IMG/VR virus record: IMGVR_UViG_3300002920_000014
Span: 1 to 64,000 of that record
Direction: 5' to 3' (one strand)
DNA from: a virus
Length of the DNA stretch: 64,000 nucleotides
In this document: positions 2,009 to 52,718 of the stretch, piece after piece
Layout: every line of letters begins with the position of its first letter
How positions within the stretch are numbered: the first letter of the stretch is position 1
Notes under the pieces: generated by a model
The model's database searches: none
Told to the model about the DNA's origin: nothing
Seen by the model: only the letters and a program-made list of their open reading frames with translations
Translations under genes and position numbers: made by a program

Positions 2009-3073
2009 ATGTCAAAAACTAAAGTTGATAAGTACTTAGAAAGTATGATAGGACTTGACCCTGTTCGTGTTGGTTCTCTTCTTAATGCTAACGCTGAAGT
2101 TACTGCTGAAACAGTAATAAAACAATTAGATAAGTTCATTAAAGCTATAGCTGATACAAGCGGTGGTCGTTCTGCTGGCTCTCTTAAAGGGTATCATGGT
2201 GCTTTAGTTAAATCTAAAGCTAAGAGGTTTGTGCCTATAGTTCTTCCGTCGAGTGGTGTAAAAATATACGTTAATCAACCTTCTGTTTACGTAGAAGCCC
2301 CCGACCACCACAAGAAGATACGGCACGGTAAAGGGGTTCGTCAACACCTTCATGTTTTTGACTTACTTGATGAAGGCCGTAAAGCTTTGCCACGTAAGCA
2401 AGTAGGTGGTTATGCTTTGCACAATTTAACAGACACTGGAATAACCCCCAGAACTTATGCTGCCGGTAAGCAAAGACGTGAAGATGGTGTTATCAAGAAG
2501 CCAGTTAGGTACGAGCCTAGAACACAAAAAGTTATGTATGTTAAGGCAAGAGTTGCGTCTATAACTACTGGTGCTGGCACTTACACTATAACACGACCTG
2601 AACCTCGTGTAGACCCAAGACGTCAAGTTGCTGTTAGCAGAAAGAGGTTAAAAGAGGATGAAGTCACCAGTAAAGACCTTAAAGCTCAGGTGTCTGCTAA
2701 GAGAGAGTTTATACAACAGCGCATTGACGAATTAAGAGATAGAATGAAAACTGAATATGTAAATAGAACAGGCAGAAAGACTATTAGACCTCAAGACGCT
2801 GAATTGATGAAAAAAGAAATAGAAGCATTTAAGCTTTCTATGAGAGAAAAACTTATCGGCCCTATTCTACTTGAACAAGCTAGGAGAAATGCTGCTAGAC
2901 GGGCCGCTAATGCTAACAAGAAAGCCGGCGTTATGTACGTTCGTGGTGGCATAGAGGCTGTTATGCCTAGACGGTTGTATCAAAGAGCTTATAAACAAGC
3001 TAAAAAATCTACTGTTGGCAAGGGTGCTTACTTATTCGATGTTGTATTAGTTAAAAATGTTACTCTTAAATAG
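2009..3073 (+). CDS. hypothetical, strongly basic (K/R-rich) protein
   Basis: 354-aa ORF with GAAAGGA upstream of the ATG. It lies immediately upstream of the tape-measure gene. Confidence 0.6.
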   Translation: MSKTKVDKYLESMIGLDPVRVGSLLNANAEVTAETVIKQLDKFIKAIADTSGGRSAGSLKGYHGALVKSKAKRFVPIVLPSSGVKIYVNQPSVYVEAPDHHKKIRHGKGVRQHLHVFDLLDEGRKALPRKQVGGYALHNLTDTGITPRTYAAGKQRREDGVIKKPVRYEPRTQKVMYVKARVASITTGAGTYTITRPEPRVDPRRQVAVSRKRLKEDEVTSKDLKAQVSAKREFIQQRIDELRDRMKTEYVNRTGRKTIRPQDAELMKKEIEAFKLSMREKLIGPILLEQARRNAARRAANANKKAGVMYVRGGIEAVMPRRLYQRAYKQAKKSTVGKGAYLFDVVLVKNVTLK

Positions 3074-3093: not shown

Positions 3094-6000
3094 ATGGCTG
3101 CTGGTGTAAGTGGTTTTAATCTAGAAGTTCTTTCGGAACTGGTTAGTAAGCTAGACCAAGTTTATGTCAAACTTAGTCAGGTCGAGGAAAGACTTGCTAC
3201 AATAAGCTCTACTGATCTAACTTTAACCATATCTGGCAGAACAGCAGAGACGCTTAACACTTTAGTTCAAAATTTTGAAAAACTTCAAAACTTAGACTCT
3301 GAGTCCGTATCTAATATTGCTAAGAATCTTTCTAATGCTTTAGATCAGCTCAATAAGTCTGATATTAATGACAGGCTTTATAAGTTGCAGTTACCTGAAA
3401 CTTTCTTACAGTCTGCTAAAGGTCTCAATGCTTTCGCATCTGCTATAGCCAGACTTGGTAGAAGTGATGTTGACGTTGGTTTGTCTATAGCTAAGTTATC
3501 ATTCTCACTTAAATCATTAGTCGATATAGACGTATCTTCTATAAAATCAGACAATTTTAATGTGTTTTTTGAAGTCGGTAAGAGTTTAGCATCTTTTGCG
3601 CTTTCTTTTAACCGTCTTTCTAGGCTATCAGAGAGTGATTTTAGCAACATAACCACTAACGTTATGAATTTTATTAAAAACTTTTCTTCTTTTAAAATAC
3701 CACAAACTTTTGATAGACAAATATTAGACATATCTAAGTCTGTTTCTAATATAGCGTCTGTCTTTAAAATCACTAGTAGTTTACCACTTGATTATGATAT
3801 TACACCATTTTTTGTTATTCTCGATGATTTTATAGACTATTTAGCTCTTGCATCAGATGAAATATCAAAAATAGAAAAAGTTGATTTACTTTTTGTTATC
3901 TCTAGATTGTCCCGTAATATGATTGATTTTATAAAGTTAGCTGGTTCAAAGTCGGATAATCTAAACGTAAAAAATATGTTTTCTGTTTTTGATGATCTTA
4001 TACATTATTTCAGCACTATATCTGATAAAATAAAATCCGTGCAAGATCTTAATGATTTGTCCGTTTTATTCAAGTCTTTTTCACAGTTAGCAAATTTTTT
4101 TAGAGTTGCTAAATCAATAGCGGTAGACTTTGATATAAAGGGTGTAATTGCAATTTTTGAGTATTTTATTGGTTACATTATTAGGGTGTCTAATCGTGTA
4201 TCAAAATTAGAAGGCATAGATAGTTTATCTTCTATATTCAAATATTTTTCTCAACTAGGTGAATTCTCAAAGTCAACAAGAACAATTACTGGATCTTTTG
4301 ATTTCACCCCCATATTTACTGTTCTTGATCAATTTATACAGTTTTTAATTAAAACATCTGACAACGTTCCAAAATTAGATAGTATAAAAGATATTATATC
4401 ATCTTTAAGATTGTTTATTAAAGTTTCAGAATTAACAATTGCTTTAGAAAATAATTCTTCTATCACTAAAAATAATCTAACTCACATGTTTGATTCACTA
4501 AAAATTTTTATAGATATTATATCTGAAGAATTAAAAGTTAATACTAGAGTAGTAGATAATCTTACAACTTTACGCATTATCTTAGAATCTATACGTGATT
4601 TGTTCAGATTATCTAAAATAGTCAGCAACGATCCAGATTATTATAAAAAGTTAGCAGATTTGGTAAGTATAATACCTATATTAAATAATTTTACAAACCA
4701 ACTTAAGCAAATTCAAACTGTACCAAATGAATCTGTTGTTTTCTTTAAAAAGTTGTCTGAAGTTATTAGAAATATAAGCTATATTACTACAATAAAAGAA
4801 AATTTTAATGTTTCAATTATAGACAAAATTATTAATCAACTTATTACGACAATAGCTAATGTCTATACTAAGTTAAACAATGGACAACTTATTAAATTCG
4901 ATCAAATATTCCCTAGTATTCAATCCTTAATACTATCCATAAGAAGATTTATTAATACTATTATTTCTAATAAAGGACTATTAGAAGATTCAAGTAAAGT
5001 TGAAACCATATTTAAGAATATGAAAAAACTATTAGATGGGATACCCGATTTAATAGGATCAGTGGTCGGACCTATTAAATTTACTACAGATATAGGTGCT
5101 AGATCTGTAGCCAGGATATTAAAAGACGTAGGTCCTCTTTTAACTTTTATATTTAAGGACCTAGTAAATATAATAGACGAACAAACTATAAGTACTAACC
5201 TAAAAAACTTGCTTAAAAGAGGACTATTGTTACGATTGACAGCAGCGGCTTTTGGTATTTTTATGGACGCCATAATGATGCCTTTCAAAGCCATAGAAAA
5301 TGCAAAATTAGGGGGTATTGGCGACTTTACTAGCGGATTTGGTAGATTACTTGAAGGGGTATCTTCATTTTCTAGATTCATAAAAAGTTTGCTTGAAATA
5401 AACCTAAAGTTCGATAAAACCACTTTTATAGAGATAACGAAAATCGTTGGATTTATAGGTCTACAAGTCGGTCTTTTAATTTTAGCATTAGCTCCTGTGG
5501 CTTTTTTAAACCCTACAAAGCTATCTGCACTGGGTGATATAAGTAAATCGTTTAGGTACGTACTCGATTTCTTTTCGTTTGTCAACTCTCCCGATTTTGT
5601 TTCAAAAGCTGGTATAGCAGTAGCCCTTAGTGTTGGCACACTATTAAATAAATTCTTTAAAACAGTTGTAGCTGGTGGGTTCATAACATATTTGTTACTT
5701 ATTTTTGCTAGTATGGCCAAGTTAGGTGGTTCTGACTTAAAGTATGTACCTGATGTTATTAAATCTTTGAAATACGTAGGAGAATTTATAAGATCTTTAA
5801 ACGATAACATATTCAGTAACGCTAATTTAATAACCGATGGTCTTCTTAAATCATTAAACGAATATACCAAGATATTTAGAGCCATAAGTCAAGGTGGGTT
5901 TGTAATTTCCATTCTTATAGCGCTTGGGATTTTAACTCGTTTAGCGGGAGAAAACACAAAATTCTTACCCGATGTTATTAAATCGCTAAGCAGCATATCT

Positions 6001-9000
6001 GATTTTATTACACAGTTACAATCTAATGTGTTTAAAAATGCTAATTTAATAACAGACGGATTATTAGGCAGTTTAAACACTAGCACTAAAACTTTTAGAG
6101 CAATATCCCAAAGTGGTTTTATAACTTCTTTGTTCTTGTTCTTAGGGGTGATGAGTAAGTTAGCTGGTCAAAATATGGCTTACTTACCAGATACTATAAT
6201 ATCTCTAAAAGTAATATTTGATTTTGTAGACTCTATGCAACAGACTGTGTTCAGAAACGCCAATATTGTAACAGATGGTTTGTTGAGTAATCTAACACAA
6301 TCAACTCAAATATTTAGAGCCACAGTTCAATCTGGATTTATAGGTTCTATTTTGCTGTTCATAGGGTTTATGTCTAAAATAGGTGGCGTTAACTTACAAT
6401 TCGCACCTGAAGTCTTAAAGAATCTTTATGTTATATTCTCTTTTGTAGAAAAACTTCAAACTACTGTATTTAAATCGGTCAATTTGATTACTGATGGTCT
6501 ACTTCAAGATTTAACCAGATCTACTAAGACTTTTAACGCTTTATCACAAAGTGGGTTTATAAACTCTATATTGTTAGTTATAGGTGTAATGTCAAGACTA
6601 GGTGGTGAGGACTTACAATATGCGCCAGCTGTTCTGAACAGTTTATCCTCTGTTTTTAACTTTATTGAAGGTCTTCAGACTAACGTATTTAAATCTGCAA
6701 ACATTATCAAAGATGGACTCTTTGAGGACCTAACAAAAACTACTAAAATGTTTAACGCTTTATCACAAGGAGGATTTGTATCTTCTTTGTTACTTGTGAT
6801 AGGGGTTTTATCAAAACTTGGCGGTTCTGGTCTAAAAGACATACCGAGTGTTTTATCCTCACTACCTTATTTAGGATCTTTCATAGATTCTATAAACTCT
6901 ACCGTGTTTAGGTCGGCTAACTTAATAAGTGATGGTTTGTTAGCAGATCTTAATAAAAATACTAAAGTGTTCAGAGCGTTGACTCAAAGTGGGTTTTTAT
7001 CTTCAATTCTTTTGGCTCTTGCCGCGTTCTCAAAACTTGCCGGCGTTAACACTCAGTACGTAGGTCCGGTATTACAAGCCTTGCCAGCTATAGGCACACT
7101 TATAGAGTCTTTGAACCGTACAATATTTTCATCGGCCAATTTAATACAAGACTGGTTATTAAAAGATTTTAATGATCAGATTAAGATGTATAGATCATTG
7201 ACTCAAGGGGGTTTTGTTGCTGCATTACTTGGCTTAATAGGAGCTATGGCACGTCTTGGCGGTTCTGCTTTACAATATGTACCTGGTATACTATCGTCGT
7301 TACCAGTTTTAGCTGATTTCTTGTCACAATTAAGAAAAACTATATTTGCTAATGCCGATCTCGTAACTGAAAGTGGACCTTTAGAAGAAGTAAATAAGAC
7401 TGCTAAAAAATTCAGAGCGTTGACACAAGGTGGTTTTCTGTCGTCAATATTGCTGATGATAGGTGTGATGACTCGAATTGGTGGTTCTAATCTACAATAC
7501 GCAGATAAAGCAGCTGTTGCAATAAAAGCTGTTACGGACTTTCTGTCTGCTGTTTCTCGCAACGTAACTAGTAGCTTTCTGGACTACATACCTATTATAT
7601 CGGATATTAAGAGAGCTTCTGAGCTATTTAAAGCTATAGTTCAGTCAGGTCTTTTTTCTCTTGCAGCTGTAGTGTTTTTATTGGCGACGCGCTTGTCTAA
7701 CGTTTCTGCTATAACTTCTATGGTTAATTTTTTTGATTCTATGAGTAAGTTGTACGTATCTCTCAAATCGTCTGCTAAAAATGACTTATCAATGGAGAAC
7801 GTTAAAACTTACTTCGCTCAAGTAGACTTTATACTTAATTCTATACGTCGACTAAAACTTAGTAAAAATGTAGATAGTTCTTTTTTGAACTCTGTAATTG
7901 GTCTCATATCAGCATTAAGTAACATAAAAGTCGATTTACCTGATACTCTTACTAGAATTGCTCCTGCTTTTAAAGATTTTGTTAGTTCGTTTAACAGTCT
8001 CAACATAGACGATAGATCATCAAAGTCTATAGTTAGAATTATAGATTCGTTAAAAAACATACCTAGAAACATACCTAATATACCAAAAATAGATGTAAAT
8101 GCACCAAAGTCTACGAACACTGCATATAGAAACTCTATAACGGAACTTAATAGTCTTCTCTCTATCATAGATAGAGTTACTTCAGCTGTTAAGTCTATGT
8201 TCCAAGCTTTTGCTTCTTTAACTAATATAGTTGGTTTAGTAAATAACGTGTCTAGAAGTGTAGTTGAGCTAGGCAGAAACGTTAGAGAAGTCGGAGACAA
8301 CATCATGCAGGCTGGCCAAAATATGGGCCAAGTATTTACTGGATTTCTCCGTAATCAAACGTTCTCTACAGTATCTGAATTTGATAAAATAGGTACTCAA
8401 CTTCAAGTTTTTGGTGGTCTTACAAATGAAGCCAGACGTGAAGCAGAAGATTTTGCACTTCAAATAGGCAAAAATTACCCGTTATCTGCTAATGAAGCAC
8501 TACAAGCTACAACCGATCTTATAAAAGCTGGTCAAAGTTTAGCTTCTACTAAATTCATTCTACCTAGTGCTTCTGATTTAGCGGCTCTTAGTGGGTCTTC
8601 TTTACCCGACGCCACTAATTTGTTAATCTTAGCAGAAAGTACTTTTAGCTCTTTTAGAGATGGCGTAGAAGGATCTTTTGAAAACATAGATAAAGCAGCT
8701 GACATACTCTCTGCGGCAGCAGACGCTAGTACAGCTTCGGTTCAAAGTTTAGGTGAGGGTTTAGCTAACGTATCATCAACTGCTAATATTGCAGGTATTA
8801 CTCTTGAAGAAACAGCCGCCATACTTGCTATACTGGATGAAAGCGGAAAGAAAGGAGCGGAAGGTGGTACGGCGCTTGCATCTATGTTTAACAGTTTAAC
8901 AAAACCAAAAACACAAAAGGCGCTAAGTGATTTACAAAGAACTGTTAGAGGTTTTGGTAAAGAGTTCAAAGATTTAAATGTAAGTTTATACAATCCTGAT

Positions 9001-12000
9001 GGATCTAGAAGGAATATCAATGATTATTTTAATAGTTTAGGTATAGCCCTTAAAGCTATAGAAGAGAGGCAAGGTACAAAAGGTGTAGATGCTTACATAA
9101 ATAGACTAGCTGACACTTATGGTAAACAAGGTTTACAAATTATCCTAGCTGGTGGCACTGACGCTATTAAAAACATGATAGAAGCAATGAACGATGTTGC
9201 CCCTGCGTCAGAACGCGCAGCGTCTATGCTTGATAATTTTGCTGGGGATGTAGAGCAACTCAAAGGATCTGTAGAAACTTTATATGTTAAAGCACTAAAG
9301 CCTTCCCTCGAAGAATTTTTTAGACCTTTTGTTAAGATTGGCAGATTAGTAGTAGATACTCTGATAAGTATGGATACAAAAATTGTATCTTTCTTAGGAA
9401 GTATGTTATCTGTGTCTGTTACGGGTGTAGGTAGCTTAGCAGCTTTAACGCTATCTTTTGGCGGTTTGCTCAAGGTAGGTGGGGCTGTTATATCCTCTCT
9501 AGGTTATATGATAAATGTACTAAAATTTGCAACTTGGTTTATGGGTTTATTATCCGGTTCTGTTATAGGGCTTGTGACTGCATTTACTGCACTGACTGTA
9601 ATAGTTCCAGTAATAGCCGGTGTAACGGCCACCTTTAAGAGCTTATATACCATACTCAGTCAAGACTTAGGAGGTGCTGCATCAGGAATCAGAAATGTAT
9701 TCGGTGTGTTAGGAGAATTTTTCTCTTCAATAAGCGAACTAGGTAACTCCGTTATAAACCTTATCAAAGAAGCTTTTGGTGACGGTGCTGGTACGAACGG
9801 CCTCTTAGATGCTGCTGGAGCGAGCATAGCTAACTTCTTTAACAACATAGCATCGGGATTGAAAAACGGTGCAATTGGACGTGTTACACAAGCGTTCAAA
9901 GACATGGCTGGTATCATTACTGCTTTTACCTCAGTGATGACAGTGGAGTCTAGACGTGCCAAACAGATAGAATCACGTAACAGACGTATGACCGAAGACG
10001 GTATATTTTCCGAAGAAGATATAGAAGCTTCTGTTAAATCAACAGAAACTAACTTTGATAAAGCTTATAAATCTCTTATCGATAACGTTGTTAAAAACAA
10101 CAAGTTGTTTAAAAAAGTATTTGGTGAAAGCTTTTCTCCTGATCAGTTCATTCAACTTGCCGAGAGCTTAAGAAGCAATTTTAACACCATCGGCAATGTT
10201 ATCGCCGATTTTAGAAAGCGTATATCTGAAGGAGTTGTCGGAGGTAATTTAAGTTTACCTGAATTGTTAGGACTTGGCAATGATACTGCTGGTAAAATAG
10301 CAGGAGAACTGGCAACAATTTTTGGCACTCTGTTCAATATAGATTTGTCACAAGTAGCAGCTAATTTTACAAACGGTGGTTTTATTGCGGGTATACAAGA
10401 TCTGTTTAGATCACTAATATCAAAAGCAGGTGAAGTTTTACTTAATAACAAAGAATCTTTAAGAACAGCCTTTATAGGTGTCTTAGAGTTTGCTTTTAGC
10501 CCCGTTAAACTTGTTGGGTTAATTGGAGATATATTTGATATAAAAGCACTTCAAGACATAGCTTCTGGGTTTGAAGAAGTTATGAAAAACGTGTTTGGTG
10601 GAATATTTGACACTTTAGTAGCTTTGCTTTCAGGTAAAGATATTGAAACAGCCCTCAATGAAGGGTTTGGTAAAACTTTTAACTCTATAATAGAGTTGAT
10701 AAGAGGGGTCGGTAGATCTATATCCCTCTTGTTTAAGTACATTTCGGAATCAATAAGTTCTTTTATATCCTCAATAGGAATAAGTGGTGAAACAGTAACC
10801 TCTGTTGTAAATGACATAATAAAAGCTTTAGCTGACGTTATAAAGATAATAAATGACGAATTTTTTACCCCGCTCGCAGAAGAAGGATTATTCGCCGCTC
10901 TTGGTAACGTGTTGAAACTGGCTTTTGAAACTATAAAAACGGTAGTCGCAGATATTATTAGTTACTTATCGACTATTGATATAGCCAGTGTTGTATCAAC
11001 TTTCGTAGCGACGTTATCCTCCAATTTAGTCAGTGGCTTGTCCTCTGCACTTTCCACAGCTGTTTCTTCTGTAGGCGGCGATACTAATTCTCTTAAATCT
11101 CTTTTTGAAACTACTCTAAGCAGCTTATTCGATATAAGTAGTACAGGTTTAGAAGGAGCGTTCGCTACTTTACCAGCAGCTTTATCTGGAGCACTTGCGA
11201 CAGCGCTCACTGCAGGCATTGAGCTTCTTGGGAGTACTCTGAACCTTGATGTGTCTGCAGTAACACAACGTATTAACGATACGTTACAGAGCATTTTTGA
11301 CGGCATCAAAGATCTCGTTGGTTTTGGTGAAGAAAACGGCATCATAGATAACATAAGGAAATTTGTAGATACGATACAAAAGTTGTTCGATGTTATAACG
11401 GGAAACAACACAGATAACGCTTCTAAGACAGCGTATAATTTAAACATACTAACAGCGGCACTACAATCGATCGCTAATTTGCCTTTAGCGATTATAGATC
11501 AGGCTATACGCACCATAGACTCTTTCTTTGACTTTATTGGGTCACTTGAACCTCAAGACATAGCTTTGGTTGCAGCAGGTATAGTTACTTTTGCTGGTGC
11601 TTATACAGTATTGACTACCGCTGCATCTTTAGGTGGTATAGCAAATCTACTAGCTATGAAAGGTTTGTTTGGAACTTTAGGGACTATTGCTTGGTCAGTC
11701 ATAAGCGGCGGCATAAGTGCTGTAGCCGGCGCTATAACAACCCTTATGAACTCTGTTGTTGGTAAGATGATTGGTGTTGCATCAGTAGTCCTCGTCATAG
11801 CTACTTTTGTTCAAAATCTTGGTCAATTAAAAGACGTTATTGATAACCTTCTCAAAGGTGACTTATTCGGAGCATTGGGTGAAGCCATACAAGGATTGAT
11901 TGACTTCTTAGGAGACATAGGTATCAATCTTCTTAAACTTTTAGGCTTCGATGAAGGATTCATACGTGGTGTACAAACAACTCTTGACCAAGTTGGGGTA

Positions 12001-14004
12001 CTCATAAATCTGCTGTTCACTGGTCTTGGTGTACAAATCACTTCATTTTTTGAAAACGTCTTCAACAAAATAGGCTATTTCTTTTCTACACAGCTACCTT
12101 TAATTCTTGCTAAAGCTGGGGCTGAGGCAGTAAGTCTAGCAAACCCAGACCGTGCTATAGATGGTCAAATAGCGGGCATAGAAAAATATTTAGGAGGAAC
12201 GGATTTTAGCGCAGCGAAAGATTTAGCAAGTACTACAGATGGTAGTTTTATACGTCAATTTACTAACACAGGTAATGCACTTAACGACGCTATTTCAGAT
12301 TATGCTAGAAAAACACTTGTGTCTAACATAGATAACTTTGTAAGATTTTTGAATGAAGAGTCTTTATCCACAGAAGGTTTTAGCACGGATATAGGTGCTC
12401 TTAACCTCGAACAATACGTAGGAGCTCTGAACGCTAGTGGCGGTGTAGATGAAGCAATTGGCAGAGCTTTTGCTATGGGGTATACCGATCTTGCAAATCA
12501 GATCATCGCTGAAGCTGACGCTAAAGGTTACAAGTTTGATATAGCTCCAGTTATCAATAATGCAGCCAGAGAAATAGTCAATTCAGTTGGTCAACAAGGC
12601 ATGTCTATGACCCCTGAAATGGTGGACTCTGCTGTAGCTCAGTTAGAAACCATGCGTGCAGAGCTAGTTGAGAGAGGTTTCTCTACCGATGGGGTAGACT
12701 CCGAAATTGCTCGTGTTCAGGGCTATTTTAGTATGCTTGTAAGTGCTGCTGCGAAAAGTAGTGAGGGGGCGGCCGAAGAGGCTGGTAGAGCTATAGGAGA
12801 AACTGCTTCAAGGGGTATAACGAATGGTATGTCTAACGTTGAAATTAGTAGTCCTGTTAGTCCACCTACGTCTACTATAACGGAAGACAGTTCAAACATT
12901 CCTTCTAATCCGATAAGTGTACCTGTTGAAGTCAATCCAGTTGTAACTGAAGTTACTCCCATTGCTGAAGATTCTACTAATTTAATTAAAAATTCCTTAG
13001 AAAGTGACATCTCAGAATCTATAGTAGAACTTAGCGTTCCTGCTCAAGCTACATTGGATATTCTGGACGTGGACACGCTGACGCCGGAAGCCATTACGGT
13101 TTTAAGTGAAGTCTTTGCTAAACTAAGTTTAGAACTTAAGGGTGTACATGAAACAATAAACACATTAGTTAAACCAGCTATTAATGAGTTAAGCTTATCA
13201 ATAGAGACGTTAATAAACGTCAATATCTCAAACTTTACAACATCGGCCACCGGTATGGCTAACACATTGACAACAATTGTTCTTCCCTCAATTGAACAAA
13301 TAAAAGCTTCTTTTAACAACATGTCGTTACTAACCATTCCTGTTTTGAACAGTATGCTCATGGTTACATCTAGCATATTATCCATAAATTTCCCAATAAG
13401 TGCTTCGTCTACAGCAACAGCTGTGAAACTAATTGAAGAAGCTTTCTTCAGTCTTGGAAACACTGTAACTCGCGTGACGAGTCTGTTATTGAACGTAGCA
13501 GAAGCCGCTGCCTCTGCCTCACAAAATGCTGCTGATGCAACTGGTAGGATAGCTGAGGCTGCAGTTGGTTCAGCTAATGCAGTAACGAATTCTTTAGGAG
13601 GTGGTTCATCTAAACCTCAAGGAAGAGCCAGTGGTGGTACAGTTAAACAAGGTATGTATCGCATTAACGAACAAGGATCTGAAGTCTTAATTGAACGTGG
13701 TAAGATGTACTTATTGTCTTCCGGCTTAGGTAAGATTGAACCATTGTCAAAAGGTCTACTGCCTAATTTTGATCCTACAGCAAGAACTATGGGGAATAAC
13801 ATTTATTCAGAAATTAGAAAGCCACCGATGAATAGCAACGAGTATTCATACAACACCTATAACGAAGGAGATATTGTTGTTAATGTCACAGTAGATAGCT
13901 CAGCCTCAGCTAAAGAAATATCAAACCGAGTTGCAGAAGCTATTCGTAGACAAAGACCAGAGCAGATAAGTGCTAAAAAGAATTTTAGGAGTAATCAACA
14001 ATGA
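3094..14004 (+). CDS. giant tail tape measure protein (3636 aa)
   Basis: A TP901/PhageMin_Tail-like core is present (FGGLTNEARREAEDFALQIGKNYPLSANEALQATTDLIKAGQSL...). There are hydrophobic helix clusters. The C-terminus is typical of tape-measure proteins (ASGGTVKQGMYRINEQGSEVLIERG). Dit/Tal-like genes follow. Confidence 0.8.
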   Translation: MAAGVSGFNLEVLSELVSKLDQVYVKLSQVEERLATISSTDLTLTISGRTAETLNTLVQNFEKLQNLDSESVSNIAKNLSNALDQLNKSDINDRLYKLQLPETFLQSAKGLNAFASAIARLGRSDVDVGLSIAKLSFSLKSLVDIDVSSIKSDNFNVFFEVGKSLASFALSFNRLSRLSESDFSNITTNVMNFIKNFSSFKIPQTFDRQILDISKSVSNIASVFKITSSLPLDYDITPFFVILDDFIDYLALASDEISKIEKVDLLFVISRLSRNMIDFIKLAGSKSDNLNVKNMFSVFDDLIHYFSTISDKIKSVQDLNDLSVLFKSFSQLANFFRVAKSIAVDFDIKGVIAIFEYFIGYIIRVSNRVSKLEGIDSLSSIFKYFSQLGEFSKSTRTITGSFDFTPIFTVLDQFIQFLIKTSDNVPKLDSIKDIISSLRLFIKVSELTIALENNSSITKNNLTHMFDSLKIFIDIISEELKVNTRVVDNLTTLRIILESIRDLFRLSKIVSNDPDYYKKLADLVSIIPILNNFTNQLKQIQTVPNESVVFFKKLSEVIRNISYITTIKENFNVSIIDKIINQLITTIANVYTKLNNGQLIKFDQIFPSIQSLILSIRRFINTIISNKGLLEDSSKVETIFKNMKKLLDGIPDLIGSVVGPIKFTTDIGARSVARILKDVGPLLTFIFKDLVNIIDEQTISTNLKNLLKRGLLLRLTAAAFGIFMDAIMMPFKAIENAKLGGIGDFTSGFGRLLEGVSSFSRFIKSLLEINLKFDKTTFIEITKIVGFIGLQVGLLILALAPVAFLNPTKLSALGDISKSFRYVLDFFSFVNSPDFVSKAGIAVALSVGTLLNKFFKTVVAGGFITYLLLIFASMAKLGGSDLKYVPDVIKSLKYVGEFIRSLNDNIFSNANLITDGLLKSLNEYTKIFRAISQGGFVISILIALGILTRLAGENTKFLPDVIKSLSSISDFITQLQSNVFKNANLITDGLLGSLNTSTKTFRAISQSGFITSLFLFLGVMSKLAGQNMAYLPDTIISLKVIFDFVDSMQQTVFRNANIVTDGLLSNLTQSTQIFRATVQSGFIGSILLFIGFMSKIGGVNLQFAPEVLKNLYVIFSFVEKLQTTVFKSVNLITDGLLQDLTRSTKTFNALSQSGFINSILLVIGVMSRLGGEDLQYAPAVLNSLSSVFNFIEGLQTNVFKSANIIKDGLFEDLTKTTKMFNALSQGGFVSSLLLVIGVLSKLGGSGLKDIPSVLSSLPYLGSFIDSINSTVFRSANLISDGLLADLNKNTKVFRALTQSGFLSSILLALAAFSKLAGVNTQYVGPVLQALPAIGTLIESLNRTIFSSANLIQDWLLKDFNDQIKMYRSLTQGGFVAALLGLIGAMARLGGSALQYVPGILSSLPVLADFLSQLRKTIFANADLVTESGPLEEVNKTAKKFRALTQGGFLSSILLMIGVMTRIGGSNLQYADKAAVAIKAVTDFLSAVSRNVTSSFLDYIPIISDIKRASELFKAIVQSGLFSLAAVVFLLATRLSNVSAITSMVNFFDSMSKLYVSLKSSAKNDLSMENVKTYFAQVDFILNSIRRLKLSKNVDSSFLNSVIGLISALSNIKVDLPDTLTRIAPAFKDFVSSFNSLNIDDRSSKSIVRIIDSLKNIPRNIPNIPKIDVNAPKSTNTAYRNSITELNSLLSIIDRVTSAVKSMFQAFASLTNIVGLVNNVSRSVVELGRNVREVGDNIMQAGQNMGQVFTGFLRNQTFSTVSEFDKIGTQLQVFGGLTNEARREAEDFALQIGKNYPLSANEALQATTDLIKAGQSLASTKFILPSASDLAALSGSSLPDATNLLILAESTFSSFRDGVEGSFENIDKAADILSAAADASTASVQSLGEGLANVSSTANIAGITLEETAAILAILDESGKKGAEGGTALASMFNSLTKPKTQKALSDLQRTVRGFGKEFKDLNVSLYNPDGSRRNINDYFNSLGIALKAIEERQGTKGVDAYINRLADTYGKQGLQIILAGGTDAIKNMIEAMNDVAPASERAASMLDNFAGDVEQLKGSVETLYVKALKPSLEEFFRPFVKIGRLVVDTLISMDTKIVSFLGSMLSVSVTGVGSLAALTLSFGGLLKVGGAVISSLGYMINVLKFATWFMGLLSGSVIGLVTAFTALTVIVPVIAGVTATFKSLYTILSQDLGGAASGIRNVFGVLGEFFSSISELGNSVINLIKEAFGDGAGTNGLLDAAGASIANFFNNIASGLKNGAIGRVTQAFKDMAGIITAFTSVMTVESRRAKQIESRNRRMTEDGIFSEEDIEASVKSTETNFDKAYKSLIDNVVKNNKLFKKVFGESFSPDQFIQLAESLRSNFNTIGNVIADFRKRISEGVVGGNLSLPELLGLGNDTAGKIAGELATIFGTLFNIDLSQVAANFTNGGFIAGIQDLFRSLISKAGEVLLNNKESLRTAFIGVLEFAFSPVKLVGLIGDIFDIKALQDIASGFEEVMKNVFGGIFDTLVALLSGKDIETALNEGFGKTFNSIIELIRGVGRSISLLFKYISESISSFISSIGISGETVTSVVNDIIKALADVIKIINDEFFTPLAEEGLFAALGNVLKLAFETIKTVVADIISYLSTIDIASVVSTFVATLSSNLVSGLSSALSTAVSSVGGDTNSLKSLFETTLSSLFDISSTGLEGAFATLPAALSGALATALTAGIELLGSTLNLDVSAVTQRINDTLQSIFDGIKDLVGFGEENGIIDNIRKFVDTIQKLFDVITGNNTDNASKTAYNLNILTAALQSIANLPLAIIDQAIRTIDSFFDFIGSLEPQDIALVAAGIVTFAGAYTVLTTAASLGGIANLLAMKGLFGTLGTIAWSVISGGISAVAGAITTLMNSVVGKMIGVASVVLVIATFVQNLGQLKDVIDNLLKGDLFGALGEAIQGLIDFLGDIGINLLKLLGFDEGFIRGVQTTLDQVGVLINLLFTGLGVQITSFFENVFNKIGYFFSTQLPLILAKAGAEAVSLANPDRAIDGQIAGIEKYLGGTDFSAAKDLASTTDGSFIRQFTNTGNALNDAISDYARKTLVSNIDNFVRFLNEESLSTEGFSTDIGALNLEQYVGALNASGGVDEAIGRAFAMGYTDLANQIIAEADAKGYKFDIAPVINNAAREIVNSVGQQGMSMTPEMVDSAVAQLETMRAELVERGFSTDGVDSEIARVQGYFSMLVSAAAKSSEGAAEEAGRAIGETASRGITNGMSNVEISSPVSPPTSTITEDSSNIPSNPISVPVEVNPVVTEVTPIAEDSTNLIKNSLESDISESIVELSVPAQATLDILDVDTLTPEAITVLSEVFAKLSLELKGVHETINTLVKPAINELSLSIETLINVNISNFTTSATGMANTLTTIVLPSIEQIKASFNNMSLLTIPVLNSMLMVTSSILSINFPISASSTATAVKLIEEAFFSLGNTVTRVTSLLLNVAEAAASASQNAADATGRIAEAAVGSANAVTNSLGGGSSKPQGRASGGTVKQGMYRINEQGSEVLIERGKMYLLSSGLGKIEPLSKGLLPNFDPTARTMGNNIYSEIRKPPMNSNEYSYNTYNEGDIVVNVTVDSSASAKEISNRVAEAIRRQRPEQISAKKNFRSNQQ
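3560..5010 (+). repeat. degenerate ~56-aa repeat series inside the tape-measure N-terminal third (approximate bounds)
   Basis: A recurring pattern F-x-x-h-D-x-F-I-x-Y/F...S-D/N-x-h-x-K-h...L-x-x-h-F-K/R-x-h-S is seen about 8-10 times, for example FFVILDDFIDYLALASDEISKIE, FSVFDDLIHYFSTISDKIKSVQ and FTVLDQFIQFLIKTSDNVPKLD. Confidence 0.6.
5599..7570 (+). repeat. in-frame tandem array, 219-nt (73-aa) period, about 8-9 units, inside the tape-measure gene
   Basis: The anchor motif (N/S)-(A/V)-N-(L/I)-(I/V)-x-D-(G/W)-L starts at 5818, 6037, 6256, 6475, 6694, 6913, 7132 and 7351, exactly 219 nt apart. Each unit also has T-K-x-F-R-A-(I/L)-(S/T)-Q-(G/S)-G-F followed by a hydrophobic helix and L-(A/G)-G. 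Confidence 0.9.
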
Positions 14005-15071
14005 ACGTGTGGATATACCAAATAGGTAACATTCCAGTGTATGAGGTTCTCAGTAGTCGTTCTGATGGTGGTGTTGAAGTTGATATACCAAGAAAGTGGC
14101 ACGTTCCTACAGAAGACCTCAAAGATACTGGTGGCAGGATTAACTTAATGCCTTCGGGTAGAACTTCTCCTGAAGCTGTTGATATCAGCGTTAAGGGTGA
14201 TTTTTTTGAAACCTCAACAATGCCCGCCATGTCTTTTGTTAATCAAATTAATAGTTTAGGTGGTTTTAGAGATGTGCCAATTATAGGGTTTCGATTGGCA
14301 AGTCAACCCAACGGCTCTCAACCAATTCTTCATTGGCTTACAATGAATGTCACTATAGAAAGTGTTGATGTTGAGTTTAGTTACAAAGATACTGAGTGGA
14401 AATCAGATGTAGTTACTGTAGACATCAAGATGAAAGGTGAAGCTTATTGGAGAAGCCTTAACTCTTCTGTGTGGTCATACTCACTTTTCAATCACAGAGG
14501 TGACCAAAAATCTTTTTCTATAAGCCATCCCAAATACATTACAGATATAAATAAAAATTACAGTTTTGTTCAAAGAATTGACAACAACACAATTATTCAT
14601 AATCCATCTTTGTGGGGGGTATTTTATAAATCCGATCCTTTTGGGTCTTTTGGCTTTTCTTGGACAAGTTCACTTTCAAACTATGTATACTCACACCCTT
14701 ATTTTTGGTCTGGAGAACCCATCAGTTATTACGCTTTCAAGAACCTTGATCTTAATAACCAAGTGTCTATTGAGGTTGTTAAAAATGATGGGTCTTTGTC
14801 AACATCCACGCTCAACACAAACGATTTACATACAATTTTAGTGGCTAGAGGCTATTATGGTCTCAGACCATCTGATATTATTATAGCGGGAAAAACCAAT
14901 CCATTACCGGGCTTTGTAATTCGAGAAGGTAACGTCATACCAGTCGTAGCTCCTTGGATTAAACAAGACGTGTTTGTTGGGAGAGTTGGGATTGGTGAAA
15001 GCCTTATAAAAGTAACAGTAAATAACTCAGGAATACTTCAATCACAACTTCATATTTTCCAGAGTTACTAA
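14001..15071 (+). CDS. distal tail protein (Dit) candidate
   Basis: 356-aa ORF whose start overlaps the tape-measure stop (ATGA). Called from its position directly after the tape-measure gene. No motif-level support. Confidence 0.45.
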   Translation: MNVWIYQIGNIPVYEVLSSRSDGGVEVDIPRKWHVPTEDLKDTGGRINLMPSGRTSPEAVDISVKGDFFETSTMPAMSFVNQINSLGGFRDVPIIGFRLASQPNGSQPILHWLTMNVTIESVDVEFSYKDTEWKSDVVTVDIKMKGEAYWRSLNSSVWSYSLFNHRGDQKSFSISHPKYITDINKNYSFVQRIDNNTIIHNPSLWGVFYKSDPFGSFGFSWTSSLSNYVYSHPYFWSGEPISYYAFKNLDLNNQVSIEVVKNDGSLSTSTLNTNDLHTILVARGYYGLRPSDIIIAGKTNPLPGFVIREGNVIPVVAPWIKQDVFVGRVGIGESLIKVTVNNSGILQSQLHIFQSY

Positions 15072-15079: not shown

Positions 15080-17161
15080 ATGGCTACAGTCAAAGTCTTT
15101 GATAAAAGCGGTGAAACATTCATCGGTGAAACTCAAATAGCAGACTGCAAAATACAATACGGTATTTCAAAAGCTGCAGATTGGTCGTTCTCTATACCAC
15201 TAACTTCTCCAATAGTGACCAATCTAAGTGTGGGTCAGTTTATAGAGGTGTGGCATGACGGCAGTATGCTCGTTAAAGGTCGTATTCAAGAAGTTGAAGC
15301 CGATGTTACCGAGAACTTTAAAATTTCTTATAAAGGTCGTGATTACTTGGACTTACTGTACCAAATCAGTCCCCACCCATTTGCTTATTTTAAAAATCAG
15401 ACGTATCTAAAAATTCTTGCAGAACTTTTAAGATTTACTGATTGGAGGTTAGGGGTTATAGACCCAGTTCTTGACTTGCTTAAACAAAAAAGTACAGTAG
15501 ATCTTCGAGGGAAAAAAAGTTTAGCTGAGCAATTAAGTGAATTGTTCAAGATGATAGGTAATATTCAATACCGCCTTCAAAAACAAGGGAAAAAAGTTAT
15601 TGATTTGGGCACATTTACTAGTCCAAAAGCGATTTTCGGGACACAGGTAACCGAGGGACAAGCTACATTTCCGACATTAGTTATAAATGGAATAAAACTT
15701 AAAGAAGATGTAGACTACCAATTGGGATCGCTTAGCGCTGTTGGACCAGTCACTACAACCCCGTCTGGTAAACGAGCCATTACTATGGCCGACGGTCTTT
15801 TAGACACCCAAGTAATAGATGATACCACTGCTCTGGTAGAAGAAGTTAGATCTTCAGTTTTTTCCTTAAAAAACAGACGTGTTAAAGGCTCTGGTGGAAC
15901 TGTACTCATGAGGAGTTCAGCCTCTATTAACACACCATTCACACAATCAGTAGACACTATGGTGGTGTATAAAGTTTTACCCAGTGGTAAAGTAAAAAGT
16001 TTATTATTAGATACTAATGAAACTCACCCTTTTTTAACCTATTCACTTAAAAACGGTGCTGCTTACTTCGGCATAACTTTCTTTGGACCGATTAACAACT
16101 ATCCAACTAACCCTTACCCTTGGTACAGGTCTTTTCCCCTCCATAATGAAGTAATAATAATCGGTATGCCTGACAGTTACAACGGATCGGGCAGTATATT
16201 ATTCAATCTTGAACCATACAACGTAGTGTTACCCGAAACTTCAGCGTATGTATTAAGATTTACAATATTCAATATAGGGACAAATATTAATAACTACATG
16301 TTTGTTCGTTACGCACCAGACACTAACATACTGACTAAAAATTGGACTGAGCTGAGATCGACGGGGGGAGTAGTAAATACATTTACAGATCGTAGTCCAT
16401 CTTTTGAACTTGAAATAGCCTCCACAAACAACAGTATAAACTTAGTAAGCGAAAACCAAATATTTGAAGAATATAAGGTTGCTGAGGGGGACACAATGAC
16501 TGCTCAGCAAGTATCTGAGGCGGGCAAAGCATTGTTAGCCAGAGCTCGCAGTATTATGAATAACCGTCTCGTTGGTAGAAAGGTTTATGAATTAGAGGCT
16601 TCAGCTAGTAATCTATTTATTCGTCCCGGGGATTACGTAAAGTTTAGTTTGTCACAAACTATTGGAAGCACGGTTGTTAATTTAGATAATGAGTCTTTAA
16701 AAGTAGAAAGTATAGATTACGATTTTAATAACGGTATTGGTAAATTATCTGTTAAACTCACAACTAACCCAGAACTTGAATATACTGACCCCTTTATAGA
16801 AACCAAAGATAGAGCAAAACCTCAAACTATTGAGAACAGAGTAGACTTAGGGTTCAATTTTACAGCCCATCAAGAAGATTTTATTATATCAGAAACAACT
16901 ATTAGTCTTAACAACCTTCACCCAAACACCTTCACTTCAGACAACATACCTGGCACACTTATAGAATATACACCAACTAACAACTTATCTAGACTCCTAT
17001 GTACGCCAGTCGTGTCAAACGCAAACGAACCGGTATTTGTTGAAAGATTGAACAACACTAAGTTTGTTGCGTATACCCCTAATGGATGGAATTACCAAAC
17101 AAACTGTAACATCACAATGTTCGAGTATGTAAGAACTAACTCAGTGGCTGGAGGGAACTAA
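15080..17161 (+). CDS. tail-associated / baseplate hub (Tal-like) protein candidate
   Basis: 693-aa ORF in the second position after the tape-measure gene. The N-terminal region resembles siphovirus tail endopeptidase / Tal N-domains by eye. Confidence 0.45.
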   Translation: MATVKVFDKSGETFIGETQIADCKIQYGISKAADWSFSIPLTSPIVTNLSVGQFIEVWHDGSMLVKGRIQEVEADVTENFKISYKGRDYLDLLYQISPHPFAYFKNQTYLKILAELLRFTDWRLGVIDPVLDLLKQKSTVDLRGKKSLAEQLSELFKMIGNIQYRLQKQGKKVIDLGTFTSPKAIFGTQVTEGQATFPTLVINGIKLKEDVDYQLGSLSAVGPVTTTPSGKRAITMADGLLDTQVIDDTTALVEEVRSSVFSLKNRRVKGSGGTVLMRSSASINTPFTQSVDTMVVYKVLPSGKVKSLLLDTNETHPFLTYSLKNGAAYFGITFFGPINNYPTNPYPWYRSFPLHNEVIIIGMPDSYNGSGSILFNLEPYNVVLPETSAYVLRFTIFNIGTNINNYMFVRYAPDTNILTKNWTELRSTGGVVNTFTDRSPSFELEIASTNNSINLVSENQIFEEYKVAEGDTMTAQQVSEAGKALLARARSIMNNRLVGRKVYELEASASNLFIRPGDYVKFSLSQTIGSTVVNLDNESLKVESIDYDFNNGIGKLSVKLTTNPELEYTDPFIETKDRAKPQTIENRVDLGFNFTAHQEDFIISETTISLNNLHPNTFTSDNIPGTLIEYTPTNNLSRLLCTPVVSNANEPVFVERLNNTKFVAYTPNGWNYQTNCNITMFEYVRTNSVAGGN

Positions 17162-18084
17162 TGTCTGTACCTTCATTGATAGACCAAATAACCTGGACAA
17201 ACGATCCAGCTTTACAAAAGACAGTGTGGGCTAATAATGTATCTTTAATAACCCAAATATTCGACTTAATGATGTCCGGTGATACGTTGTTCCTTAATCA
17301 GGAGAACGAACCAAGCATTGAAGATTGGTATTCTTTACAAGAAAATCTTATAACCCCAAACCAAGATTTGGTATGGTTTAGTAATGGAGTGTACCAAAGC
17401 ACCTATCGAATCATAAACAACACTTTAATGATCTACGATGCAATAGGTGGCATAGGGAAATCTGTATTTCAAGGAGATCATGATGGTCTTACCGTTCTTG
17501 GATTTGGTTCAATATCAACCTCTACGACTGTGCCAGTAACTTGGCCGAGTGCTGGGCAGCTACTAGCAACTTTTGTTCCAAACTACGTGTCTGATAGAAC
17601 TTGCACTGCCGGATTAAATCTGTATAAACTTATCCCACACAGAATTGGAAGCTCATCATCTACCCCACCCTCTCCTACTTACACTAATTTGTTACTCGCC
17701 ACTACTAACGTACTCATCAAAACCGGTAACGGTATCAGCGATTTCATTGTTATAAAGAATGTAACACCCGGATCTCAATATAAATCATCTGTGATAAATA
17801 ACGGCAACAACCCAGACATTATGATGCACTCTATATGGGGTACTAAGTTAAACTTCAACTTAGTTAACGAGGGAATTGAAATCGTTATTCACGTCGAAAA
17901 CTTAAATTACAACCGTTCTAGCTTTAAAGAAATTGCCTTTGATTCCAAAAACTATAAAAGGGCTAACCAAGAGTCCATGTCGTCAACTGGTTATTGTTTG
18001 GCAAGTCCTTCAGGAAATCAATCTTCTTACTACAAACCAAAAAAAGCTTATTCTTATTTAGAGATATACGAGGTGTGGTCATGA
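17161..18084 (+). CDS. fibre / receptor-binding family paralog 1
   Basis: Shares the N-terminal module h-h-h-N-Q-x-x-x-P-x-x-x-D-W with the next four ORFs (LFLNQENEPSIEDWYSL). Translationally coupled. Confidence 0.5.
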   Translation: MSVPSLIDQITWTNDPALQKTVWANNVSLITQIFDLMMSGDTLFLNQENEPSIEDWYSLQENLITPNQDLVWFSNGVYQSTYRIINNTLMIYDAIGGIGKSVFQGDHDGLTVLGFGSISTSTTVPVTWPSAGQLLATFVPNYVSDRTCTAGLNLYKLIPHRIGSSSSTPPSPTYTNLLLATTNVLIKTGNGISDFIVIKNVTPGSQYKSSVINNGNNPDIMMHSIWGTKLNFNLVNEGIEIVIHVENLNYNRSSFKEIAFDSKNYKRANQESMSSTGYCLASPSGNQSSYYKPKKAYSYLEIYEVWS

Positions 18085-18824
18085 CATCAATTGTTTTACC
18101 AAACTGGTCAGATAATTTTTCAGACCAACAATTTTTCATAGACGTTTTAAAAACAAATCTAACTAATATCTACAACGAACACATACAAAAAAACAGACAA
18201 ACTATTATCTTAAATCAAGACACAAGACCAACTCAAGATCAATGGGAAACAGAATGGGTGTTAATAACTGGTCTTCCTCTACCTATTTTGCCTTCTGCAG
18301 AACTCATTTGGGTTAAAGGATCAGCTATCCACGATATTTTAAGGTTTATCAACGGGTCTCTCGTATCAATACGAACGATGACCCCCCAAAAAAGTGTATA
18401 TATGTTATCTTCCACGGGAGGCAACAACTCCCCCGTAACCAATTCTACTCAAAGTTTTCTCACGCCCGTAGCCACATTAGGGACAAACATCAACATTAAA
18501 GTTCCAACAACGATTGAACTCGCTTTTTCAACCGCTTTAGTTGTCAACACAGCGCCCTCCCCAACAACCAATCTCTTTGGCGCTGACTTTTTCGCTAACG
18601 GACAAAAACTAAGTACGACCTATTACGCTCAAAGCACTACGTCTCCTTGGATGTTTCTCGGAAATACAACAACATTCATCAACATATGGATGATAATACC
18701 AAACCTTAATCCGGGTTCATACACTTTCCAAGTTGGTGTTGGTAACAGCGGAACGCCCTCTGTCGCAGGTAACTTCACTCTAGGGCCTGGATGGACGGGC
18801 AGTGTTAAAGGTTACAGACTATGA
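18081..18824 (+). CDS. fibre / receptor-binding family paralog 2
   Basis: The ATG at 18081 overlaps the upstream stop (ATGA). N-module IILNQDTRPTQDQWETEW...LPLPILPSAELIWV. Confidence 0.5.
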   Translation: MTSIVLPNWSDNFSDQQFFIDVLKTNLTNIYNEHIQKNRQTIILNQDTRPTQDQWETEWVLITGLPLPILPSAELIWVKGSAIHDILRFINGSLVSIRTMTPQKSVYMLSSTGGNNSPVTNSTQSFLTPVATLGTNINIKVPTTIELAFSTALVVNTAPSPTTNLFGADFFANGQKLSTTYYAQSTTSPWMFLGNTTTFINIWMIIPNLNPGSYTFQVGVGNSGTPSVAGNFTLGPGWTGSVKGYRL

Positions 18825-21351: not shown

Positions 21352-21356
21352 ACATC

Positions 21357-48070: not shown

Positions 48071-48143
48071 GTGCGCCCTACAGGATTCGAACCTGTAACC
48101 TAGTGGTTATGAGCCACCTGCTCTGACCGTTGAGCTAAAGGCG
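48071..48143 (-). tRNA. tRNA with CAU anticodon (elongator Met, or Ile2 if lysidine-modified)
   Basis: A hand-folded cloverleaf was obtained. The acceptor is GCGCCTT/AGGGCGC, the D arm GCTC/GAGC, the anticodon loop CTCATAA and the T arm ACAGG-TTCGAAT-CCTGT. Discriminator A. Confidence 0.85.
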
Positions 48144-48184
48144 CGTTGAAATCATTGTAACAAAAAGCTGTGTGTCAAACAACC

Positions 48185-48637: not shown

Positions 48638-48662
48638 AATAACCCCGTGTATATTTAGTAAA

Positions 48663-48735: not shown

Positions 48736-48739
48736 TAAA

Positions 48740-48812: not shown

Positions 48813-48877
48813 ATTTTTATGTTACCACTCTCCAATATCGAGGTCAATACTTAACCCCGATAAAAACGTATTACCAA

Positions 48878-51540: not shown

Positions 51541-51570
51541 GATTTTTTCCTCGTCTTTGCATATATCAAA

Positions 51571-51647: not shown

Positions 51648-51650
51648 AAT

Positions 51651-52715: not shown

Positions 52716-52718
52716 AAT

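Follow-up and report, generated by a model that had tools for sequence, protein, structure and literature searches.

The 64,000-nt window analysed here belongs to a viral contig of 73,752 bp, of which 14.8 % is occupied by a single gene for a tape measure protein (TMP). The features recognised in this gene and next to it are the following:

920-1612, 1581-1994 and 2009-3073, + strand: three upstream ORFs, syntenic with ORFs upstream of related TMPs (tblastn)
3094..14004, + strand: TMP gene, complete, with ATG start (3,636 aa, 390.6 kDa)
3094..3369 (aa 1-92), + strand: conserved N-terminal segment, common to the N-termini of related TMPs with a long pre-core region (blastp)
3730..4416 (aa 213-441), + strand: array of about four 56-aa repeats (three complete units, one lacking its N-terminal part and a weak trace of a fifth)
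5470..7695 (aa 793-1534), + strand: array of 73-aa repeats, with nine full units at aa 853-1494 and degenerate copies at both ends (aa 793-832 and 1511-1534)
7726..8376 (aa 1545-1761), + strand: pre-core segment conserved with relatives (blastp against L005, L003, L006, P0002 and P0003)
8377..9357 (aa 1762-2088), + strand: TP901/PhageMin_Tail core (PF10145, TIGR01760), modelled as a compact all-helical domain (pLDDT 80-95)
9382..9654 (aa 2097-2187), + strand: post-core hydrophobic cluster (Kyte-Doolittle values up to 2.43), in a position typical of TMPs
9655..13611 (aa 2188-3506), + strand: long post-core region, acidic and with helical periodicity
13612..14001 (aa 3507-3636), + strand: C-terminal segment with a GG...E.G.E motif and a terminal strand/helix segment (comparison by eye)
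14001..15071, + strand: downstream ORF, the ATG of which overlaps the TMP stop codon (ATGA)

The TMP reading frame is real and uninterrupted, as the earlier note had described it. It contains no internal stop codon, while the other five frames across the ORF contain 76-424 stops. With a per-codon stop probability of 0.072 in this region, the probability of the frame being open by chance is approximately 1e-118 (log10 P = -117.8), and the long open frame is no chance product. Two observations speak against a chimera: GC3 is uniformly low along the whole ORF (0.17-0.31), and the N-terminal motif recurs in relatives. The 73-aa repeats are only 45-62 % identical at the DNA level and Tandem Repeats Finder detected no period longer than 12 bases in the repeat region; collapse or expansion of the array during assembly is thus not an issue. 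The protein forms a singleton cluster and contains no cysteine, three histidines and three tryptophans.

The 3,636-aa protein is a TP901-type tail tape measure protein. PF10145 (PhageMin_Tail) matched at aa 1786-1963 with 84.3 bits (cutoff 33.2) and TIGR01760 at aa 1784-2066 with 75.5 bits (cutoff 28.8), in agreement with the core that had been placed near aa 1740-2010 from the sequence. In addition, 12 PHROG TMP families matched the protein (E 1e-9 to 1e-44), as did annotated TMPs in 261 phage records in tblastn. Modelling of individual segments with AlphaFold had been proposed, and for the core it gave a confident helical domain: in a Foldseek search it matched 169 predicted viral TMP models of BFVD at E<=1e-3; those of the top matches that carry a name were TMPs or minor tail proteins. 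Against the PDB the core model had no significant fold match, the best being a designed alpha/alpha toroid (E 0.04), and a PDB sequence search with the TMP gave no match. PF10145 was the sole Pfam domain found, and no DxDxD motif, peptidase M23 or transglycosylase domain was found in the extension. An RNA polymerase-like or otherwise enzymatic N-terminal domain was rejected, given the lack of DxDxD and of a Pfam domain there, together with the low number of His and the absence of Cys.

The three upstream ORFs are, judged by their position, candidate tail tube and assembly chaperone genes, and the downstream ORF is a candidate distal tail protein gene on the same grounds. Searches of these flanking ORFs against Pfam, PHROGs, NCBIfam and PDB sequences gave no match and no tail family. 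A programmed -1 frameshift (G/GT-like) joining ORFs 1581-1994 and 2009-3073 was considered and rejected: there is no slippery site, the -1 frame of the first ORF is closed at 1985, just 7 bases ahead of the zero-frame stop, and the second ORF has its own start. The TMP gene shares its strand with the terminase and late genes.

The extra length of the protein is located mainly in the pre-core region of 1,761 residues, and internal repeats make up 27 % of all residues. The repeat arrays mentioned in the earlier note were recovered. The 73-aa units are 25-59 % identical to each other as protein, and their third codon positions only 37-51 %; the duplications behind the repeats are ancient. The residues kept across the units (Q-GGF, KLGG, P-V and ANLITDGLL) have been retained despite the diverged third positions, which indicates a role that depends on the sequence itself and not only on spacing. 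Each of the nine full units contains an uncharged stretch of 19-23 residues, and in seven of them this stretch is a transmembrane-like hydrophobic helix flanked by Lys/Arg. The array region is basic (pI 9.6), and charge is segmented along the protein, with pI 9.5-9.9 in the pre-core region and 4.2-5.1 in the post-core region. For three 73-aa units AlphaFold reached a pLDDT of only 45, the usable part being the low-confidence secondary structure, which was all-helical with a loop of about 12 residues predicted per unit. It is possible that the conserved Gly, Pro and Asn-Asp-Gly residues and the predicted loops give fold-back helices, which could then span less than 0.15 nm per residue.

Hydrophobic helices had been noted in multiple clusters, and three clusters were found (aa 711-1541, 2097-2187 and 2823-2985), with 19 hydrophobic peaks in total. 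The second aligns with the hydrophobic cluster of the metagenomic relative P0003. The third lies within the post-core region, which also contains a linker rich in Pro/Ser/Thr/Glu at aa ~3200-3300. Hydrophobic periodicity peaked at 3.5-3.7 residues in all 12 blocks of the protein, with 2-7 times the power found at the beta-strand period of 2.0, and DSSP assigned helices in both AlphaFold models (the core and the three 73-aa units). The C-terminus, earlier called canonical for tape measure proteins, has the motif 'ASGGTVKQGMYRINEQGSEVLI' followed by the terminal strand/helix segment, and compared by eye, thus only qualitatively, it resembles the C-termini of the unrelated TMPs P0008, P0009, P0017 and P0019.

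Approximately 75 % of the TMP sequence was without a detectable homologue, also when 1.84 billion proteins were scanned exhaustively. The N-terminal half gave no match in 50,697 phage records with megablast or tblastn, and peptide-pattern scans of IMG/VR with aa 1-800 and aa 801-1650 gave no relative. Nothing reached E<=1e-3 when aa 767-1560 and aa 2700-3636 were the queries of word-indexed searches, an exhaustive HMMER search with aa 1-1200 matched only the query itself, and no homologue was found for the post-core region beyond aa ~2680. A scan of genome contigs with the core alignment did not find a relative and hence gave no prophage or host clue.

Six relatives were found in metagenomic data: P0002, P0003 (on a contig in a Chloroflexota MAG), L003 (from IMG/VR), L005, L006 and L007. 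They have in common with the present protein an N-terminal motif of ~60-90 aa, the conserved pre-core segment and the core (26-39 % identity over the main aligned segment), and two or three syntenic upstream genes. In blastp the N-terminal segment was 41 % identical to that of L006, 28 % to that of L003 and 27 % to that of P0002, over stretches from aa 1-58 to aa 9-92. The GC content of the relatives is higher (0.46-0.54). The earlier note had suggested a comparison with relatives differing in repeat number. Their pre-core regions are indeed shorter (446, 512, 833, 905, 911 and 911 aa compared to 1,761 aa), and they have a repeat-rich hydrophobic region at the same position, in L005 an own array of at least six hydrophobic repeats of ~63 aa. 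The 73-aa unit as such could not be detected in these proteins: with the repeat HMM no per-domain E value was below 0.05 and no whole-sequence E value was better than 0.007. All relatives except P0002 run into the end of their contig, and P0002 ends ~110 bases short of its own, which leaves the total lengths uncertain.

The TP901-1 TMP (937 aa) and other members of the TP901 family share with the present protein the core domain, above both curated cutoffs, a hydrophobic cluster directly after the core, helicity throughout, the C-terminal motif and internal repeats. In typical members the core starts only ~70-80 residues from the N-terminus (70 in L004, 70-78 in P0004 and P0005), whereas here it is preceded by 1,761 residues. 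The repeats of TP901-1 are aromatic and of 11/18 aa, compared to 73 and 56 aa here; they act as length modules (PMC5099701). When the hydrophobic segments Tm2-3 of TP901-1 are deleted, the tail measures 107.6 nm instead of 118 nm (PMC5099701); hydrophobic segments are thus part of the ruler length.

The size of the protein was earlier regarded as exceptional and several-fold above the typical. It is at the top of the range and about four times the length of the TP901-1 TMP, but precedents exist: this TMP is among the longest found, not unprecedented, and giant rulers with matching tails are already known. Gordonia phages Hotorobo and Monty have TMP genes of 9,984 bp and tails of ~540 nm, i.e. 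0.162 nm/aa (PMC4982279), and gp96 of Thermus phage P23-45 has 5,002 aa with a tail of more than 800 nm (PMC10770324, PMC9022992); both gene lengths were confirmed. The TMPs of the Montyvirus phages Hotorobo, Monty and Woes have 3,322-3,327 aa, and in these phages, as here, the giant TMP takes 13-15 % of a ~74-77 kb genome. The present protein is 309 residues longer than that of Hotorobo, which has 22 hydrophobic peaks (19 here), 8 % of residues in internal repeats (27 % here) and 70 tryptophans (3 here). The Hotorobo core is not homologous, the best BLASTP hit (E 0.001) being on a non-core helical low-complexity stretch, and Woes has no similarity to the sequence here and a different base composition. 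The gp96 of P23-45 and P74-26 is likewise giant, with a long N-terminal extension before the membrane and ruler parts. P23-45 gp96 shows no detectable similarity to the present TMP (best BLASTP E 0.089), has no internal repeats and only five hydrophobic peaks, and carries at its N-terminus a fused virion RNA polymerase, a precedent for a non-ruler function (PMC10770324); in the present protein, as a difference from gp96, neither a DxDxD motif nor a peptidase domain is present. As homology to the Hotorobo and P23-45 TMPs was not detectable, the giant size looks independently derived.

With 0.15 nm per residue, 3,636 residues correspond to 545 nm. The earlier estimate of a tail above 0.5 micrometre is thus arithmetically correct, and the scaling in the Gordonia phages and P23-45 backs the relation behind it; we predict a tail of ~545-590 nm. 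We consider it likely that the protein is the tail ruler of a highly divergent uncultivated tailed phage, lengthened by duplication before the core, and this is overall the best explanation. The protein, almost entirely alpha-helical, would lie stretched out within the tail tube, with the C-terminus anchored at the tip and the N-terminus at the head-proximal end, and polymerisation of the tube would halt at the end of this 3,636-residue ruler. For the ~75 % of the protein without homologues the ruler role would follow by analogy with other TMPs. Ancient tandem duplication of helical modules before the core (9-11 copies of 73 aa and ~4 of 56 aa) would be the main source of length, stretching the pre-core region from the 446-911 aa of the nearest relatives to its present size. 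A role as a DNA conduit, through insertion into the envelope, has been proposed for other TMPs. Here also the TMP may be ejected at infection, and its transmembrane-like helices may insert into the host envelope and form or line a conduit for the DNA.

The ruler and a membrane segment acting after ejection had been presented as alternatives. The effect of the TP901-1 hydrophobic segments on tail length indicates that the two are not mutually exclusive. In a stricter division of labour only the part from the core to the C-terminus (~1,900 aa, ~290 nm) would set the tail length, and the pre-core region would be cargo, folded or packed differently and acting after ejection as a multi-helix envelope conduit or an effector, in parallel to the N-terminal RNA polymerase of P23-45. 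The uncharged stretch in every full 73-aa unit, mostly a hydrophobic helix bracketed by Lys/Arg, the motifs kept in spite of diverged third codon positions, the segmented charge, the breaks in helicity predicted at low confidence in each unit and the P23-45 precedent (PMC10770324) are all in line with such a division. We nevertheless regard it as rather unlikely, as tail length follows the length of the entire TMP at ~0.16 nm/aa both in the Gordonia phages and in P23-45 (PMC4982279, PMC9022992), hydrophobic segments add to tail length in TP901-1 (PMC5099701), the pre-core region has no enzymatic signature, and its length differs among relatives, as that of a spacer would. A related and somewhat less probable idea is that the ~10 transmembrane-like helices of the 73-aa units, in a basic segment of 1,300 residues before the core, constitute a dedicated ejected envelope conduit or a scaffold for docking of chaperones. 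The protein would then represent a new architectural class of TMPs, common to L005-type relatives, and the tail would fall well short of the length expected from the 0.15 nm/aa rule.

An artefact, either a chimeric join of at least two genes or a mis-assembly of the repeats, is very improbable. The gene is carried by one contig only, but a 10.9-kb open frame cannot be chance, GC3 is uniform, the repeats are too diverged for mis-assembly, the N-terminal motif is also N-terminal in the relatives with long pre-core regions, the upstream gene order is conserved and the canonical C-terminal motif is present. The earlier concern that sequencing errors might be hiding stop codons does not fit this evidence. 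It is equally hard to believe that the protein is the ruler of a tailocin or another tail-like injection system instead of an infectious phage. A family search inside the window identified no capsid or portal gene, which is in line with such a particle. However, the window encodes a large terminase, DNA polymerase A, helicase, primase, methyltransferases and tRNAs, which is the gene set of a replicating phage, and head genes are expected at the place of the ~9.7 kb by which the contig extends beyond the window.

The giant TMP overturns no current idea. If the ruler rule holds, the tail would be ~0.55-0.6 µm long, beyond those of the Gordonia phages and among described cases second only to the Thermus phages, and tail gigantism would have arisen here for a third time, independently. 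If instead the pre-core region is a dedicated conduit, the phage would offer a natural test case of TMP length uncoupled from tail length. The repeat-built pre-core region and the relatives with shorter versions of it form a natural series for the evolution of tail length by module duplication, and the same series could be used to ask if the hydrophobic repeat modules act as a ruler, as a membrane conduit or as both.

The gene encoding the tail tape measure protein (TMP) of the window is 10,911 bp long and, as the earlier note had proposed, is one uninterrupted ORF (3094..14004, + strand), with an ATG start, 3,636 sense codons, a TGA stop and no internal stop. At the base composition of this region, one codon in ~14 would be expected to be a stop, the probability of 3,636 codons being open by chance is ~1e-118, and the remaining five frames contain 76-424 stops per frame. 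GC3 was 0.17-0.31 across 12 of 12 blocks of 303 codons, and this uniformity argues for one gene of uniform origin. At 14001-14004 (ATGA), the TMP stop codon and the start codon ATG of the following ORF overlap. The product is a protein of 390.6 kDa and pI 5.2, with no Cys, three His and three Trp, and is organized as follows.

aa 1-92, N-terminal segment, conserved in relatives
aa 213-441, 56-aa repeat present in about four copies
aa 793-1534, 73-aa repeat array (nine full units at aa 853-1494, degenerate copies at both ends)
aa 1545-1761, conserved pre-core segment
aa 1762-2088, TP901 core
aa 2097-2187, strongly hydrophobic cluster
aa 2188-3506, long acidic helical region
aa 2823-2985, third hydrophobic cluster, inside the acidic helical region
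near aa 3200-3300, linker rich in Pro, Ser, Thr and Glu
C-terminal end, motif 'ASGGTVKQGMYRINEQGSEVLI' and a terminal strand/helix segment

A hydrophobic periodicity of 3.5-3.7 residues is dominant in every block, and multiple hydrophobic helix clusters are present as claimed earlier, e.g. aa 2097-2187, aa 2823-2985 and the 73-aa units. The C-terminus, previously described as canonical for TMPs, resembles by eye those of the unrelated TMPs P0008, P0009, P0017 and P0019 in both the motif and the terminal segment. The protein falls into segments of different charge: it is basic at aa 442-1761 (pI 9.5-9.9) and acidic in the core and post-core (pI 4.2-5.1), with the exception of a basic hydrophobic cluster, aa 2089-2200 (pI 9.7). 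The lowest GC content of the window (0.29) occurs at 4001-6000, i.e. TMP aa ~300-970 within the lineage-specific pre-core region, and GC3 is 0.17 at aa 304-606.

The TP901/PhageMin_Tail core, which had been placed near aa 1740-2010, was recovered by both Pfam PF10145 (aa 1786-1963, 84.3 bits, cutoff 33.2) and NCBIfam TIGR01760 (aa 1784-2066, 75.5 bits, cutoff 28.8). Matches at aa ~1604-2744 came from 12 PHROG families that carry the annotation tail length tape measure protein. In tblastn the C-terminal half matched genes annotated as TMP in 261 phage records, in the core only, with 22-27 % identity in the 25 of these records listed. AlphaFold2 was applied to segments, as the earlier note had suggested. 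The model of aa 1669-2200, with 15 homologues as input, was confident for the core (pLDDT 80-95 for aa ~1758-2068) and had 169 matches among BFVD predicted structures at E<=1e-3, the named top matches being TMPs or minor tail proteins; the model of three 73-aa units was all-helical but unreliable (pLDDT 45). No solved structure was matched by sequence search or fold search. The earlier observation is confirmed and its interpretation is supported.

The window represents part of a phage genome, with genes for a large terminase, DNA polymerase A, helicase, primase and methyltransferases, and three tRNAs. Identity between its terminase and known phage terminases is only 22-29 %, which indicates a very divergent lineage. 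Features in the neighbourhood of the TMP gene and elsewhere include the following.

920-1612, 1581-1994 and 2009-3073, + strand, three ORFs upstream of the TMP gene
48071-48813, - strand, tRNA genes Met (CAT), Leu (TAA) and Arg (TCT), found by both ARAGORN and Rfam
61885-62643, + strand, PAS-domain ORF between the large terminase and the last ORF
62646-64000, + strand, ORF of at least 451 aa running off the window end, no Pfam match, portal candidate by position only

The three upstream ORFs have no family or PDB match, and the third is very basic (pI 10.4). They are syntenic with ORFs that precede related TMP genes in L002, L003, L005, L006 and L007, and their homologues adjoin the TMP gene in several relatives. 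The frame relation of ORFs 1581-1994 and 2009-3073 is -1 both in the window and in L003, but a frameshift link was rejected as there is no usable slippery site. A GNAT acetyltransferase gene (PF00583, E 4e-13; 376-801, + strand) lies in the late/tail block just upstream of the TMP gene, an unusual site for such an enzyme. GC skew is negative from about 16 kb (~16000-22037), though ORFs are on the + strand up to 22,037 and other + strand genes have positive skew; this stretch is possibly a mosaic module for the distal tail or host range. The region 50000-56000 is GC-rich (0.47-0.54 compared to ~0.39 elsewhere), contains small minus-strand ORFs without Pfam match and adjoins a strand switch near 55.4-56 kb.

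For some three quarters of the TMP sequence there is no detectable homologue. No match to aa 1-1650 was found among 50,697 phage records, no relative of aa 1-800 or aa 801-1650 in IMG/VR, and no match to aa 767-1560 or aa 2700-3636 in an index of 5.8 billion proteins. Exhaustive HMMER searching of 1.84 billion cluster representatives with aa 1-1200 returned only the TMP itself, a singleton cluster from one JGI/IMG contig of 73,752 bp. Through the core region, a small metagenomic clade of relatives was found.

Metagenomic relatives of the window TMP
P0002: JGI metagenome contig of 9.5 kb; pre-core 905 aa; total 1,371 aa
P0003: contig in a Chloroflexota MAG; pre-core 446 aa; total at least 1,308 aa
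L003: IMG/VR; pre-core 512 aa; total at least 1,937 aa
L005 / L007: metagenome; pre-core 911 aa; total at least 1,640 aa
L006: metagenome; pre-core 833 aa

Every relative in the clade shares a conserved pre-core segment and core with the window TMP, and an N-terminal motif is common to the window TMP, L006, P0002 and L003 (blastp identity 41, 27 and 28 % to the latter three, respectively; aligned aa 1-58 to 9-92). The relatives have shorter pre-cores. At the position of the 73-aa array, L005 carries an array of its own, with at least six hydrophobic repeats of ~63 aa. The 73-aa unit is undetectable in the relatives, and their total lengths are uncertain, since all except P0002 run off contig ends and P0002 ends within the post-core hydrophobic cluster, ~110 bases from its contig end. 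The pre-core of the window TMP (1,761 aa) is by far the longest, compared to only ~70-80 residues in the ordinary members L004, P0004 and P0005, and its excess of ~850 aa over the longest pre-cores of the relatives is near the span of the 73-aa array. In L003 a post-core array of ~54-aa repeats (aa 1416-1800) indicates that repeat expansion in the clade occurs after the core as well. On the contig of P0002 (L001, 1-5237, - strand) a homologue of ORF 2009-3073 adjoins the TMP gene on the opposite strand, followed by a 1,521-aa minus-strand ORF, an arrangement which may be a fold-back chimera.

The 73-aa units share 25-59 % identity as protein, 45-62 % as DNA and 37-51 % at third codon positions. 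Tandem Repeats Finder gave only six tiny rows in the ORF (periods 8-12 bases), with no row at the unit length of 219 bases. It follows that the duplications are ancient and cannot have come from an assembly artefact. The conserved positions K.F, Q.GF, LL, KL.G, P.V, SL and ANLITDGLL are kept by protein-level selection. The array is basic (pI 9.6), and each full unit contains an uncharged stretch of 19-23 residues, which in seven of the nine is a hydrophobic helix with K/R on both sides.

Giant TMPs are known from Thermus phage P23-45, in which gp96 has 5,002 aa (PMC10770324; gene of 15,009 bp confirmed), its N-terminus is a virion RNA polymerase (PMC10770324) and the tail is >800 nm (PMC9022992). 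In the Gordonia phages Hotorobo and Monty, TMP genes of 9,984 bp (3,327 aa) go with tails of ~540 nm; the TMP genes of GMA7 and GTE7 are 9,141 bp (PMC4982279). The window gene is thus intermediate between the Gordonia group and P23-45. Pairwise BLASTP revealed no meaningful similarity to P23-45 (E 0.089) or Hotorobo (E 0.001 on a non-core stretch), and the gigantism therefore looks independent in origin. With ~22 hydrophobic peaks in Hotorobo as well, an abundance of hydrophobic segments does not set the window TMP apart. Its detectable internal repeat content is, however, far higher (27 % of residues) than that of Hotorobo (8 %) or P23-45 (0 %).

A conventional ruler is the best-supported reading. 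In this model an extended, helical TMP would occupy the lumen of the tube, with the C-terminus located in the tail tip and the N-terminal end marking where polymerisation of the tube would stop; on infection the TMP would be ejected and form or line the membrane conduit. The tail would be 545 nm long at 0.15 nm per residue, or about 590 nm at the Gordonia ratio (540 nm / 3,327 aa). The main rival, which is less likely, is that the pre-core array serves as cargo or conduit and not as ruler; in its favour, sequence-specific motifs are kept in the 73-aa units and helix breaks are predicted in them. Hydrophobic segments can be both ruler and membrane or chaperone-binding elements, as deletion of the hydrophobic segments Tm2-3 in TP901-1 reduced tail length from 118 to 107.6 nm (PMC5099701). 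The repeat-built pre-core architecture is unusual, its shorter form being shared with the small metagenomic clade, and the gene joins the known giant TMP class as a new member, apparently evolved independently.
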